A stretch of DNA of 55,397 nucleotides, taken from positions 1 through 55,397 of the forward strand of contig CALJEJ010000025.1 in NCBI GenBank assembly GCA_938074745.1, written 5' to 3'. Below, one piece after another: positions 43,578 through 48,811 of the stretch (the stretch's first letter is position 1; every line of letters starts with the position of its first letter). The notes under the pieces are model-generated. The model was not told where the DNA came from, ran no database searches, and saw nothing but the letters and a program-made list of their open reading frames with translations. Source of the stretch: an uncultured Endomicrobiia bacterium (lineage in GTDB: Bacteria > Elusimicrobiota > Endomicrobiia > DTEH01). Both the position numbers and the translations under genes were made by a program.

Positions 43578-44147
43578 TTATTTTGAAAATTTTTTTAAAG
43601 TTAATTTTTTAGATAACAGTTTAAGTCCTCTGTATAATCTTACTCGGACTGTAGACGGTTTAATTTTTAGTATATCACTGATTTCTTCAATTTTTAGTCC
43701 CTCTATGTATCTTAAAGACAATACTTCCCTATACTTGGGTTTCATACGATTCAATTCTATATATACTCTGTTAACCAACTGTGGGTCAAAAGTTGGCCCA
43801 GAAGAAGTTTCTGCAGTTTCTGTTAAATCATCAAAACTGTTCTCATCTAAAGGGACAAAATCTATCACCCTTTTAGAATTTGACCTACGTAGAAAATCTA
43901 TTACGTAGTTAGTAACAATTTTGTAAAGCCAACTTTTAAACTCGTATTTTAAATTATAACTTGGTAATATACTATACACTTTTACAAAAATTTCTTGTGT
44001 TAAATCTTTCGCATCTTCTTTATTGCCACATAACCGCAATACAATGTTATAAACATAGTCTTTATATTTATCAATTATAACTTCAAAGCTATTTATATCA
44101 CCATTTATACATCTGTGGATTAACTCAAAATCGTTGTCGTTGGTCAT
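43578..44147 (-). CDS. ECF RNA polymerase sigma factor
   Basis: DAKDLTQEIF, FKSWLYKI..N..ID, region 4 EEISDIL...TVRVRLYRG. Confidence 0.92.
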   Translation of the reverse strand: MTNDNDFELIHRCINGDINSFEVIIDKYKDYVYNIVLRLCGNKEDAKDLTQEIFVKVYSILPSYNLKYEFKSWLYKIVTNYVIDFLRRSNSKRVIDFVPLDENSFDDLTETAETSSGPTFDPQLVNRVYIELNRMKPKYREVLSLRYIEGLKIEEISDILKIKPSTVRVRLYRGLKLLSKKLTLKKFSK

Positions 44148-44901
44148 ATTGTTGTTGTATATCAACCTCTTGTTTTAATTCTGTTTTTATTTTTTGTTTT
44201 ATGATATTATCTATCTTTTGAACTAACTTTGAAGTTGACAATGAAGAAAATTTGTCCAATATTTCATAAATTTGTTGTTTATCACGAGTTACATGATAAA
44301 ACTTTGTAACTGCTTGTATTAATCTGCTCATTTCTTTAACTGAACGAGTAGAATATTTTAAAAAAATTATTTCTGCAGGATTTGTTATTCCGGGCTGTTT
44401 TTCAGGTAAGTATCGTTTCAATACAATGTAATAATTCAACATTATTATTGCATCGTCAAACCTTACCTTTTGTGCCATAAACAAAGTCATAAATTTTATA
44501 AATTCTTCTTTTGTAAGACCTGATAAGATAAGTGTAGATAATAAAGAAGTGCAATAATTAGTATCATAAGGAGAAAACTTTCCCGTAGGATCACTTTTTT
44601 TTATCTGTGCAATATATTCTTTGGCAAGAATTAAAGATTCTATAATACTTTTCATTGCAGGTAACATTTTTTCATAACTACCTTTTTTAGCTACTGTTTC
44701 GTTTATAAAATTTATTATTGGTGTTTGAGGTAGATCATGAACTGTTACAGACGAAAGTAAAATCTCAATATTATCTAATTGTTCTTTAGTAAAATTCAAA
44801 GTGGCAAGTTTCTGACGAGCAATTTTGTTAAGTTCTGTTGAATATATTAAAGGAGTGATAATAATTAAAGATAAGATAAAACCTGTAATCTTGAGGTTCA
44901 T
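44125..44901 (-). CDS. Hypothetical exported protein
   Basis: 258-aa ORF with a signal peptide, overlapping the sigma gene start. Confidence 0.65.
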   Translation of the reverse strand: MNLKITGFILSLIIITPLIYSTELNKIARQKLATLNFTKEQLDNIEILLSSVTVHDLPQTPIINFINETVAKKGSYEKMLPAMKSIIESLILAKEYIAQIKKSDPTGKFSPYDTNYCTSLLSTLILSGLTKEEFIKFMTLFMAQKVRFDDAIIMLNYYIVLKRYLPEKQPGITNPAEIIFLKYSTRSVKEMSRLIQAVTKFYHVTRDKQQIYEILDKFSSLSTSKLVQKIDNIIKQKIKTELKQEVDIQQQYDQRQRF

Positions 44902-44941
44902 GATTATTTTTTTATCAATTTAATTTTTTATTTTCAATACA

Positions 44942-44959
44942 ACGTGATTTAAATCACAA
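44942..44959. promoter_or_regulatory. Second Rex/CRP-like palindrome
   Basis: ACGTGATTTAAATCACAA (GTGA-N6-TCAC with a perfect inner palindrome) in the intergenic gap. Confidence 0.4.
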
Positions 44960-44970
44960 ATATTAAGAAA

Positions 44971-45993
44971 CTAAAATAATTCTTGTTGTTGAGGTTTGTA
45001 TTTTATTCCAAGATGTTTATAGGCGAGTTCTGTTGCTACTCTACCTCGTGGTGTCCTTTTTAAAAACCCTGCCTGAATAAGGTAAGGTTCGTAAACTTCT
45101 GATATAGTATCAATTTCTTCATTCAACGCTACCGAAATTGTTTCTATTCCTACAGGACCACCATTGAATTTTTCTATTATCGTAGACAATATTTTTCTAT
45201 CCATATCATCAAGACCATATTCGTCAATACCTAAAGCAGTCATAGCTTGTTTCACAATCGGAATATCAATTACACCATCGGATTTTACAATAGCAAAATC
45301 GCGTACACGACTTAAAAGACGGTTTGCAATTCTTGGAGTTCCTCTGGAACGTAAAGCAATCTCGTAACTTGCTTCTTTAGAAATTTTTATATCCAAAATA
45401 TTTGCAGAACGAAGAATAATTTGTTGTAACTCTTCAGGTGTGTAAAACCCTAAGTTTTCTATAATTCCAAACCTGGAACGTAACGGTGCTGAAAGTAAAC
45501 CGCTACGTGTTGTTGCACCTACTAAAGTAAATCTTGCTATTGGTAAACGAACTATTTTTGCGTTAGGTCCTTGACCTACAATTATGTCCATTTTAAACTC
45601 TTCCATTACAGGATAAAGTGCTTCTTCTACAATATGGTTCATCCTATGAATTTCGTCAATAAAAAAGACATCTTGAAACTGTAAACTTGTCAACACAGCA
45701 GCAAGATCTCCTGTTTTTTCTAATGCAGGTCCTGAGGTAACTTTTATTTCTGTATTAAACTCATGAGCAATGATATGTGCTAAAGTTGTTTTTCCAGTAC
45801 CTGGTGGGCCTGAAAATAAACAATGGTCTAAAGAAACATTTCTTAACTTGGCAGATTCTATAAATACACGAAGGTTTTGTTTCAATTTTTCCTGACCTAT
45901 AAACTCGTCTAAAGTTTTAGGTCGTAGGGCAATTTCTAAATCACGTTCCTCAGGAAAAATTTTTGTCGTAGTGATACGGTTTTGAGAAACCAT
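44971..45993 (-). CDS. ruvB: Holliday junction DNA helicase RuvB
   Basis: [38 protein letters not shown]. Confidence 0.97.
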
Positions 45994-45997
45994 TTTT

Positions 45998-46639
45998 TTA
46001 TTTATTCTCAATTATAGAAACTTCTTTAATTGCAAGTTTTATTAATTCTGACATTTTTTCAGAAGAGATATTTTTTTCCACAGGATTTGTTTTCAAAACT
46101 TTTTCAACAGCTATCTTAGCCACTTGTTCTTTATAACCTAAATTTACCAACGCATCTACAAGGTCAGAATATACATCTATATCCAACGAAGGAGATGAAG
46201 TTGCAGTCTCAATAAATGTTTTAACTGAATTTAACGAATCTACAATTTTTACTGCAGAAGAATGACGAAAGTTAAACAACGAAGTTAATACTTTATAATT
46301 TTTTTCTTTAACAGCGCGTCTAAACTCAGAAATGTTTTTTTCAACTTTATCCAGATATTCTAACGCTTTCTTAGGACCTACATTTGTAAGATTGTTTTTA
46401 AAAGATAAAAAAATTTCTTTCTCTTCAGTAGATAAAAATCCATATAATGTAGGAACGTTATTGCTATACAACCCACCGGAAATTTCTACAACATAAAATT
46501 TTTTTTCTTCACCTAAAACAATTTTATTAAATGTAGTGTTGGAAACAACAATTTCGTATCCAAGCCCGTTTACTTCTACTACACATAAGTTTTTATCATC
46601 AATTTTTTCTACTACTTTACCTTTAATAAAACTATACAT
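45998..46639 (-). CDS. ruvA: Holliday junction branch migration protein RuvA
   Basis: [33 protein letters not shown]. Confidence 0.92.
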
Positions 46640-46645
46640 ATCTTT

Positions 46646-47977
46646 CTAACCAGAAAAATTGACTCTGTATTTAAGTCTTACTGGACGACAAATACCACGT
46701 TTTGATGTTTTTATAAATTCTAACATATACTTTACTTCGTCAGAAAGATTTTTTTCTTGTTCAAGTCGAGCTACTGCTTCTGATAAAGGTAATTTTGACC
46801 TGAAAAGTTTTTTATAAGCTAACTTAATTTCTTTAATTTTCTCCCTACTAAATCCTTTACGTCGTAACCCTATAACATTTACTCCACGAAGTTCTGCACG
46901 GTCTCCTACAACCATCAAAAATGGAGGGACATCTTTTGATACCATTGCACCACCACCAAGCATCGCTAATTCACCTATTCTTACATACTGGTGAACAGCT
47001 ACAAGACCGCCTATCGTAACATTATCCTCAACAACAGTATGTCCAGCAAGTGTCCCACCGTTGGTTATAACAACGTTGTTCCCTACACGACAGTCATGTG
47101 CAATATGCGAATATGCCATTATATAACAGTTGTCTCCTATTAAAGTAAGTTTTGTAGTTGTACCTCTGTGAATAGTGACAAACTCACGAATTACACAATT
47201 TTCGCCAATTATTGCTTGTGTCTGTTCTCCTTTATATTTTATATCCTGAGGCAAAGTTCCAATGCATACACTATCAAACACTTTTGTATTTTTCTTAATT
47301 ATAGCATGTTCTATGTGACAATGAGCACCTATCTGAACATTTTCTTCTAACACAACATTTTCACCAATGACAGTATACGGTCCTATTTTTGCAGTAGGAT
47401 GAATTTTTGAAGTTGGATGAATAATAGCAAACGGATGGATATTAACTTGAGTTTGAACTGCAACGTTAACTTCTGGTTGTTGTGAAGTTTTTCGTGCATC
47501 TTTGTTATCAACTAATATGAACATAAACTCTGATTCAGCAACAACATCTGTGTTTACATATGCAACTCCACGAACTTTCCCTACACGTTCTTTCGCTTTT
47601 ACTACTTCAACTCTTAACTCTAAAAGGTTGCCTGGAAGGACGGGTTTTCTAAACTTCGTTTTGTCTATAGACATAAAATATGCAAATTTACCTCTTAAAT
47701 CTGGTCTAAATAAATACAAAACACAAGCAGTTTGTGCCATTGCTTCAACTACTAACACACCCGGCATTATCGGATTGTTAGGAAAATGGCCTTTGAAAAA
47801 ATCTTCTTCACCTGTAAGATATTTATAACCCACAGCGGATTTTTCTTCTTCAGTAATTTCTACTTTATCAATCAAAAGGAATGGTTCTCTATGTGGGATA
47901 ACTTTTTTTATTTCTTCTTTCTCAAGAGTAAGTTTAGGCGTTTTTGGTGGAACTGGTTCTAAATTATTTATTAACAT
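46646..47977 (-). CDS. fabZ-lpxA: Fusion of 3-hydroxyacyl-ACP dehydratase FabZ and UDP-GlcNAc O-acyltransferase LpxA
   Basis: N-terminal IPHREPFLLIDKV and FKGHFPNNPIMPGVLVVEAMAQ; C-terminal hexapeptide repeats, PQDIKY, IREFVTIHRGT, HIAHDC, LAGH, VHQY; one uninterrupted frame. Confidence 0.93.
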   Translation of the reverse strand: MLINNLEPVPPKTPKLTLEKEEIKKVIPHREPFLLIDKVEITEEEKSAVGYKYLTGEEDFFKGHFPNNPIMPGVLVVEAMAQTACVLYLFRPDLRGKFAYFMSIDKTKFRKPVLPGNLLELRVEVVKAKERVGKVRGVAYVNTDVVAESEFMFILVDNKDARKTSQQPEVNVAVQTQVNIHPFAIIHPTSKIHPTAKIGPYTVIGENVVLEENVQIGAHCHIEHAIIKKNTKVFDSVCIGTLPQDIKYKGEQTQAIIGENCVIREFVTIHRGTTTKLTLIGDNCYIMAYSHIAHDCRVGNNVVITNGGTLAGHTVVEDNVTIGGLVAVHQYVRIGELAMLGGGAMVSKDVPPFLMVVGDRAELRGVNVIGLRRKGFSREKIKEIKLAYKKLFRSKLPLSEAVARLEQEKNLSDEVKYMLEFIKTSKRGICRPVRLKYRVNFSG

Positions 47978-48103
47978 ATTTAAACCCTCCTGAAAATAAA
48001 GTATTATTAATTTTCTATGAAATTTAATCTTTAGTTTGCAATAAAATTAAAAATTTTTTATTTATAAAAAAGTTATCTACTCAAAATATTGGTAGGATAT
48101 AAA

Positions 48104-48811
48104 TTAAACAAGACGGTTTTCAAAAAGAATTTTCTGGTCGGAAAAAATTTCGGAAGGCAAAGCATCTTTTATTATTCTACCTTGATTGAGCAAAATTACT
48201 CTTGTAGAAATTTCTTTTATAAACTCAAGGTCGTGCCCTGCAACAATTTTTGTATGATTAAAATTTTTTAATAATTCAATAAATTCTCTTCTAGTAGCAG
48301 GGTCAAGGTTCCCTGTGGGTTCATCAAGGAGTAAAATCTCTGGTTCCATTGCAAGAATAGTTGCTAATGCAACCCTTTTTTTCTCTCCGTAACTTAAATG
48401 GTGAGGAGACCTTTCTTCAAAACCAGCCATTTTTACCTGTTCAAGCGCATTTTTAACTTTTTGAATTACAATATCTTTAGAAAATCCTAAATTAAGTGGA
48501 CCAAAAGAAACATCGTCAAAAACAGTTGGCATAAACAACTGGTCTTCAGGGTCTTGAAATAATAAACCAACTTTACTCCTTATAGTTCTTAAATTTCCGT
48601 TGTTAAGTTCTTTTCCAAAAATTTTTATTTTACCATTTTTACTTTTTAGAATTCCGTTTAAATGTAAAAGCAATGTTGTTTTACCTGCACCATTGGGACC
48701 AATAATCCCTACTGATTCACCTTCAAAAATATCTAAACTTATATCTTGAAGAGCTAACTTTCCGTCAGGATAAGTATAACTTAAATTTTTTATCTCAATT
48801 ACTTTTTTCAT
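48104..48811 (-). CDS. cbiO: ECF Ni/Co transporter ATPase (NikO/CbiO)
   Basis: GPNGAGKTT, FQDPEDQLF, LSYGEKKR, LDEPT. Confidence 0.9.
   Translation of the reverse strand: MKKVIEIKNLSYTYPDGKLALQDISLDIFEGESVGIIGPNGAGKTTLLLHLNGILKSKNGKIKIFGKELNNGNLRTIRSKVGLLFQDPEDQLFMPTVFDDVSFGPLNLGFSKDIVIQKVKNALEQVKMAGFEERSPHHLSYGEKKRVALATILAMEPEILLLDEPTGNLDPATRREFIELLKNFNHTKIVAGHDLEFIKEISTRVILLNQGRIIKDALPSEIFSDQKILFENRLV

Follow-up and report, generated by a model that had tools for sequence, protein, structure and literature searches.

A fused FabZ-LpxA protein in a family of Endomicrobiia, with independent counterparts in other phyla

One open reading frame encodes FabZ and LpxA

The DNA analysed here, the window, is a stretch of 55,397 nucleotides (nt) from an uncultured Endomicrobiia bacterium of the phylum Elusimicrobiota (assembly GCA_938074745.1, contig CALJEJ010000025.1). 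On its minus strand, at 46646..47977, lies a single open reading frame (ORF), fabZ::lpxA, which joins FabZ, the dehydratase of 3-hydroxyacyl-ACP (ACP, acyl carrier protein), to LpxA, the acyl-ACP--UDP-N-acetylglucosamine (UDP-GlcNAc) O-acyltransferase. Its translation has an ATG start, 443 codons, zero internal stops and a TAG stop, and both families score above their cut-offs within this one frame. A Shine-Dalgarno-like AGGAGGG, read from the sequence, is located 7 nt upstream of the ATG (47985..47991, minus strand). We conclude, with a probability of about 0.85, that the gene encodes a genuine bifunctional FabZ-LpxA polypeptide, that it is the sole copy of both enzymes, and that it arose by stop-codon loss within the family.

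The FabZ domain covers amino acids (aa) 21-156 (47510..47917, on the minus strand like all features of the gene given below) and the LpxA domain aa 178-432 (46682..47446). They are connected by aa 158-177 (NKDARKTSQQPEVNVAVQTQ; 47447..47506), an open stretch devoid of start codons in which the valines are encoded by GTT and the leucine by TTA. Met152 belongs to the last FabZ strand; from there to the LpxA core, direct reading of the junction DNA reveals neither ATG nor GTG nor TTG in frame, and no Shine-Dalgarno-like run is present at the junction. Separate initiation of LpxA at this point is thus impossible. The translation and the junction DNA agree in this with the initial annotation, made from the letters of the window, which had described a single polypeptide without a stop or an internal ATG in the linker; the polar linker of about 20 aa that it reported is likewise there, and it is not conserved.

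A missed stop or a frameshift between two genes, introduced in sequencing or assembly, could mimic such a fusion. The metagenome assembly is indeed of low coverage (word depth about 5.7 in run X1, whose Logan contigs leave the bin 47688-47741 without cover), and a single stop is what parts the two genes in relatives. However, a Logan contig of 659 nt from the same run spans 47010-47668, including the linker, with 0 differences and 0 gaps; run X1 is labelled marine metagenome and is probably the source sample, so that this contig provides an independent assembly and not an independent sample. The same open frame is also present in nine other genomes of the family and in 36 protein clusters at 70-80% identity, and the linker here has 20 codons, as against a stop and a few codons in unfused relatives. 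An artefact is highly improbable on this evidence, and the fusion is genuine.

Both halves fall within their families and retain their active sites

The assignment of the first half to FabZ is supported by Pfam, with FabA (PF07977) matching aa 27-149 at 102.2 bits (cut-off 23), and by the two NCBIfam equivalogs, of which NF000582 is passed clearly (165.3 bits against a cut-off of 113, aa 21-154) and TIGR01750 marginally (156.4 against 155.15). In a search of the sequences of solved chains, H. pylori FabZ (3b7j) matches aa 21-156 with an E value of 2.1e-32. The second half contains both the hexapeptide-repeat domain (Hexapep, 97.7 bits, cut-off 27) and the C-terminal helical domain of LpxA (Acetyltransf_11, PF13720, aa 349-430, 104.5 bits, cut-off 24.5), passes both LpxA equivalogs over aa 177-432 (NF003657, 343.3 bits against 226; TIGR01852, 324.9 against 231.05) and matches the solved chain 4eqy with an E value of 8.1e-68. 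It is distinct from LpxD: the LpxD models, with cut-offs of 207 and 242.5, reach 80 bits on it. Compared with the E. coli K-12 enzymes, the FabZ half is 40% identical and the LpxA half, over 255 aa, 41%. The protein was also considered as a bifunctional LpxC/FabZ (NF009667) and rejected, as it scores 169.1 bits against a cut-off of 465, aligns with model positions 317-463 only and has no LpxC domain.

Alignment with the E. coli enzymes places His64 (codon 47786..47788) and Glu78 (47744..47746) on FabZ His54 and Glu68, which we take to be the two catalytic residues of the hotdog active site. In the LpxA half, His294 (47096..47098) aligns with His125, presumably the catalytic base, and K76, H122, H125, H144 and H160 of E. 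coli LpxA are conserved as K247, H291, H294, H313 and H329. Positions G173 and R204 are conserved as G342 and R373; we assume catalytic or substrate-binding roles for K76, H122, H144, H160 and R204. H64, E78, H291, H294, Q244, N367 and R373 are furthermore invariant in an alignment of 77 fused proteins drawn from all groups. The catalytic motifs that the initial annotation had read as intact are thus all kept, and we infer from these residues that both domains are active. The alternative that one half is a dead regulatory domain was rejected in view of the intact catalytic residues and the sole-copy status of both genes.

The fusion is the only copy of either enzyme found in its genome

The genome to which the window belongs is a metagenome-assembled genome (MAG) of 1.52 Mb in 85 contigs, 93.87% complete. 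PF07977, the FabA/FabZ family, matches it once, in fabZ::lpxA, and a whole-protein search of the 85 contigs found no second LpxA. The fused gene is therefore the only 3-hydroxyacyl-ACP dehydratase and the only UDP-GlcNAc 3-O-acyltransferase found in this 94%-complete genome. The other parts of type II fatty acid synthesis (FAS II) and of the lipid A (Raetz) pathway are there: LpxC (224.7 bits) has a 281-aa gene of its own, which on contig C6 follows bamA and an OmpH/Skp-like gene, LpxD (362.5 bits) is encoded separately on contig C4, and LpxB (202.9), LpxK (210.1), the WaaA N-domain (122.7) and a ketoacyl synthase (206.2 bits) are found on four further contigs. Since both pathways are present, the fusion supplies their common branch-point enzymes.

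Downstream, ruvA begins 6 nt after the stop of fabZ::lpxA and is followed by ruvB, which overlaps it (44971-46639, minus strand), so that in this genome the fused gene probably heads an operon with Holliday-junction helicase genes. Over 44800-48300, a scan for promoters and terminators found no more than shuffled sequence does (promoter-like sites, 11 against a mean of 13.7; terminators, 0). The neighbourhood is not a conserved one, as none of the nine other loci of the family has ruvA, ruvB, cbiO or cbiQ within 1.5 kb. In a sister genus (locus L011) the order is instead lpxC, fabZ::lpxA, lpxI and a Gfo/Idh/MocA oxidoreductase. The initial annotation had remarked that lpxC and lpxD are not adjacent to the fusion; this is correct for the genome at hand, and it does not extend to the fusion as such, which directly follows lpxC in the sister genus.

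Other genes surround this cluster. Upstream of the fusion, the minus strand between 48104 and 55376 carries cbiM, a small ORF, cbiQ and cbiO, which make up an energy-coupling factor transporter of the cobalt type, together with a GxxExxY protein and a 1140-aa CobN/BchH-like chelatase subunit. On the other side, an ORF of 258 aa (44125-44901, minus strand), hydrophobic at its N-terminus and without a match in NCBIfam or Pfam, overlaps the start of an extracytoplasmic function sigma-factor gene (43578-44165) by 41 nt, and might encode an anti-sigma or partner protein.

Stop-codon loss within the family likely produced the fusion

Among 401 Elusimicrobiota genomes searched, 393 of which matched the query protein, an uninterrupted frame across both domains occurs in all ten genomes of the window's Endomicrobiia family, which represent three genera. 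In two of these (G067 and G091) one stop was flagged, yet the frame is intact, with stop-to-stop lengths of 441 and 437 aa and both domains inside. No such frame was found among the 391 other genomes sampled from the phylum. Sixty of these have a match across both halves with at least one stop inside, and the remaining matches cover the LpxA half only. The inheritance of the fused form is further supported by a search of 5.8 billion proteins, where 119 of the 120 best proteins have both domains by profile search, the exception being a fragment of 284 aa, and by the 36 further protein clusters (at 90% identity) already mentioned, which come from several sources and share the uninterrupted frame.

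The unfused relatives indicate how the fusion could have come about. In all 20 loci inspected out of the 60, lpxA is a gene of its own that comes after fabZ or LpxC-FabZ in an unchanged frame, often with one stop between them; in locus L017, for example, the order is lpxD, lpxC, fabZ, stop, lpxA and two more ORFs. The gap from the fabZ stop to the LpxA core is 0-102 nt and in frame in all 20 inspected unfused loci of Elusimicrobiota and in 68 of the 71 taken from other phyla, counts that come from samples biased by search ranking towards in-frame pairs and are not to be read as frequencies. The E. coli K-12 junction (L116, 3055-3063) reads ...GCC TGA TAC GTG ATT..., so that fabZ and lpxA share one frame, and TGA and a single codon (TAC) are all that precede the GTG start of lpxA. 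To fuse such genes it is therefore enough to lose one stop codon, a route that Dillon and Bateman (2004; PMC516016) proposed for fusions of hotdog domains at large. We consider loss of the fabZ stop codon within the window's Endomicrobiia family the likely origin, judging from these sequence comparisons.

Because the two genes are already adjacent and in frame in unfused relatives, this origin needs no special selection story, and the fusion could have been neutral: a stop lost between packed in-frame genes, a product that is tolerated, and domains that work independently, with co-translation as the sole consequence. The same-frame adjacency in the phylum and beyond it, within the bias just stated, and the equivalent junction in E. 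coli fit this explanation well. It accounts less readily for the persistence of the fused form, given that no reversion is seen in the ten family genomes or in the 36 further clusters at 70-80% identity.

We also note that seven loci of the same phylum (L016, L018, L019, L020, L022, L025 and L034) encode the classical LpxC-FabZ fusion, with stop-to-stop lengths of 441-538 aa, and that in these lpxA follows in the same frame past at least one stop (one to seven). Loss of those few stops would yield a triple LpxC-FabZ-LpxA protein, of which no example was seen in the loci with this arrangement.

FabZ-LpxA fusions arose independently in several lineages

A scan of GTDB species genomes yielded at least 600 stretches, and among the best 80 loci 73 hold both genes, three of them fused and 70 separate. 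The fused loci belong to a Margulisiibacteriota genome (L036), to WOR-1 (L037) and to an Acidobacteriota MAG (L078), and the separate ones include Serratia, Bordetella, Geobacter and Bacteroidota. Two further candidates were rejected: L105 (Gemmatimonadetes), where the length of the open frame was suggestive and the FabA domain proved absent from it, and L066, whose 544-aa frame is LpxI extended upstream and not an LpxA fusion. In a second search, of 1.84 billion representatives at 50% identity, 1707 matches were obtained at E <= 1e-30 and the best 150 were examined. At least 18 of these 150 are fused, 16 of them aligning to both domains in one stretch and two (P0131 and P0136) in two stretches. 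The other rows are plain LpxA, with the exception of the fragments P0156 (179 aa) and P0263 (202 aa) and of P0186, an LpxC-FabZ fragment.

The fused proteins do not form one group. In a tree built from the FabZ and LpxA domains (90 rows, 394 columns, a quick LG+G4 search), the fusions of the window's family form a clade of 16 rows with a Shimodaira-Hasegawa-like approximate likelihood ratio (SH-aLRT) support of 100. This clade lies within 37 rows of Elusimicrobiota that group together with support 99 and of which the other 21 are unfused. Fusions of the Margulis type constitute a separate clade of 13 rows (support 96), and those of Acidobacteriota sit among unfused Acidobacteriota (supports 99 and 98). 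Other fused rows are placed beside Armatimonadota, an alphaproteobacterium and Fibrobacteria, and there is in addition a GC-rich fused clade. The tree requires at least nine changes between the fused and unfused states, and in an approximately unbiased (AU) test, with groups chosen after inspection of the tree, forcing the window-family and Margulis-type fusions together lowers the log-likelihood by 120.9 units (p-AU 0.0018). Tree and test show separate origins for the fusions of Margulisbacteria, Acidobacteriota and other lineages.

Such recurrence, with at least nine state changes and persistence across a family, counts in favour of the fused form having been selected, as in the metabolon considered below. 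An easy loss of one stop codon accounts for recurrence without selection, however, and the scatter of fused proteins over the tree, where they are the minority form, fits a neutral, tolerated fusion.

The linker and a possible coaxial assembly

The gap between the two domain envelopes is 14-26 aa, with a median of 19, in 37 Endomicrobiia-type proteins, as opposed to a median of 6 aa in 82 fused proteins from outside Endomicrobiia, 56 of which have exactly 6. Mean pairwise identity among 36 Endomicrobiia-type proteins is 21.3% in the linker, where E, Q, K, V, S and T are abundant, as against 87.0% in FabZ and 81.3% in LpxA. Variability and lack of conservation of this kind are, at the sequence level, the signature of a flexible tether.

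Fused proteins elsewhere show some variation on this theme. In P0131 the stretch between FabZ and LpxA is about 90 aa long, with Ala, Pro and Ser abundant. The alignment of P0147 includes the FabZ region, without a Pfam FabA match at 1e-5, and P0172 has a FabA match of only 37 bits, and these two proteins may have decaying FabZ halves. P0121 is a 586-aa FabZ-FabZ-LpxA protein in which two tandem FabA-family domains, each with the His of GHFP and the Glu of LE(S/A)MAQ, precede a full LpxA; three such chains would place six FabZ domains on one LpxA trimer.

FabZ is a D3 hexamer, a trimer of dimers. LpxA is a homotrimer (PMC10863985), and the two symmetries are compatible, which raises the question of whether the fusion was selected as a D3 metabolon in which a FabZ hexamer carries an LpxA trimer on each three-fold face and R-3-hydroxyacyl-ACP is partitioned or channelled between them. 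The 6-aa envelope gap in 56 of the 82 fusions from outside Endomicrobiia would need the FabZ C-terminus to lie near the LpxA N-terminus, and the six FabZ domains per LpxA trimer expected of P0121 have the right number. E. coli, moreover, brings both enzymes together non-covalently on LapB (PMC13477621), for which no match above the cut-off is present here. These short joins and the natural FabZ-FabZ-LpxA protein fit coaxial three-fold assemblies, and the hexamer capped by two LpxA trimers that the initial annotation had suggested is plausible as a geometry.

The evidence from the window's own group does not favour so rigid a particle. A variable, unconserved linker of 14-26 aa suits a loose tether and not a fixed interface, and fused forms are rare among LpxA clusters. 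The absence of LapB is usual outside Proteobacteria (one of 14 control genomes is above the cut-off) and hence carries little weight. A complex prediction with three LpxA domains (aa 176-443) and one FabZ (aa 14-160), run without controls, gave a score of 0.00 against a mark of 0.32, which weighs neither way on docking. We consider a selected D3 metabolon unlikely, and are equally doubtful of its stronger form, in which a closed D3 particle would keep both consumers of R-3-hydroxyacyl-ACP in fixed proportion and at a fixed distance, as a hard-wired partitioner between phospholipid and lipid A that replaces control of the LapB/FtsH type, and in which selection for this role would account for the convergent evolution of the fusion at least nine times.

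A neutral origin and maintenance deserves more weight, and we regard it as a real possibility held somewhat short of even odds. The unconstrained linker and the undetected or weak FabA domains of P0147 and P0172 speak for it. Against it, the FabZ half of the Endomicrobiia-type proteins is strongly constrained (87% mean identity), and joining a protein that forms hexamers to one that forms trimers must have some structural consequence.

Several points count against the bifunctional, sole-copy reading that we prefer. The unconstrained linker is compatible with a useful fusion and just as much with one that is merely tolerated. Of the best 150 representatives among the 1707 matches, only about 18 are fused, and so low a share of LpxA clusters speaks against a strong general advantage. 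Since the MAG is 94% complete and in 85 contigs, unassembled DNA may hold another fabZ or lpxA, and no RNA sequencing run containing the stretch was listed in a run search. The speed of the tree search and the choice of the AU groups after inspection of the tree belong here as well.

A bifunctional FabZ-LpxA protein nevertheless offers a coherent account of the locus. The stop between adjacent in-frame fabZ and lpxA would have been lost inside the window's Endomicrobiia family, and the short intergenic stretch, with the flanking tails, would have become the flexible, unconstrained linker of about 20 aa. Both branch-point enzymes would from then on be made obligatorily 1:1 and kept tethered. 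How R-3-hydroxyacyl-ACP is shared out between phospholipid and lipid A would consequently be set by the kinetics of the two active sites instead of by separately tunable enzyme levels, and assembly could proceed via an LpxA trimer and FabZ dimers or hexamers. With no second fabZ or lpxA found in the genome, the two enzymes are necessarily synthesised 1:1. Of the fixed-stoichiometry device for pathway balancing that the initial annotation had proposed, the stoichiometry thus stands, on the single chain and the lack of a second gene for either enzyme, and a role in balancing would be a further, putative feature.

Relation to known systems

The closest unfused counterpart is the lpxD-fabZ-lpxA-lpxB cluster described by Opiyo et al. 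(2010; PMC3087551), as found in E. coli K-12 (b0180/b0181), which encodes the two enzymes likewise in the order FabZ, LpxA, with the catalytic residues in common and in one frame. The window gene differs in having no stop, second start or second copy, so that one chain of 443 aa results, and in having left the lpx cluster to adjoin ruvA 6 nt downstream. The familiar fusion in this pathway is LpxC/FabZ, reported from Bacteroidetes, Chlorobi and Verrucomicrobia (PMC3087551) and from Chlorobium in particular (Dillon and Bateman, 2004; PMC516016). There, too, FabZ has been joined by stop-codon loss to a neighbouring lipid A enzyme of the same cluster, and this form is also present in Elusimicrobiota. 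In LpxC/FabZ, however, the partner is LpxC and FabZ is C-terminal, whereas in the window protein FabZ is N-terminal and the partner is LpxA, the direct competitor of FabZ for its substrate. In Margulisbacteria/Saganbacteria (L036, L037) and Acidobacteriota (L078), the fusions, known from databases, share the domain order and catalytic residues of the window protein and differ from it in their independent origin, in an identity of 40-46% and in a join that is mostly of 6 aa, against about 20 aa here.

A functional parallel is provided by the LapB (YciM) hub of E. coli, which binds LpxA, LpxC, LpxD and FabZ (PMC13477621) and similarly brings the competitors at the branch point into physical proximity. 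The hub is non-covalent, membrane-anchored and coupled to FtsH proteolysis, whereas the tie in the window protein is covalent. LapB is not found above its cut-off in the window's genome (best 37.8 bits against 363), which is weak evidence since the same holds for 13 of 14 control genomes. In E. coli, fabZ mutations are noted to suppress defects in lpxA and lpxC (PMC12152623).

We found no paper on a natural FabZ-LpxA fusion in the literature searched, which does not cover the list of fused genes in Additional file 3 of Opiyo et al. (2010). Matches to 'fabZ-lpxA' are names of operons or plasmids in the text available (for example PMC12152623). In the main text of Opiyo et al. (PMC3087551) 'fusion' does not occur and 'fused' occurs once, meaning lpxC/fabZ; the hotdog-superfamily survey (PMC516016) does not contain the word 'hexapeptide'. 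The initial annotation had allowed that the architecture might prove common and already characterised. Our results bear out recurrence, in several phyla and in at least 18 of the best 150 representatives, and a characterisation was not found in the literature. The fusion is thus real, conserved, recurrent and apparently undescribed in the literature searched, and it is at the same time a modest variation, which combines two textbook enzymes by the simplest mutation.

Implications

NCBI names the fused proteins as LpxA only. With such public annotation, genomes of these lineages will seem to lack fabZ in pathway reconstructions. The biological interest lies in the position of the two enzymes, as both draw on a single intermediate, and compete for it, where the routes to membrane phospholipid and to lipopolysaccharide part. 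The balance between them is essential in E. coli and there depends on the LapB scaffold and regulated proteolysis. The fusion may carry a Rosetta-stone hint that unfused FabZ and LpxA interact as well. A covalent fusion that is the sole copy of both enzymes and has evolved repeatedly constitutes a natural experiment on whether fixed stoichiometry and proximity can set this balance.

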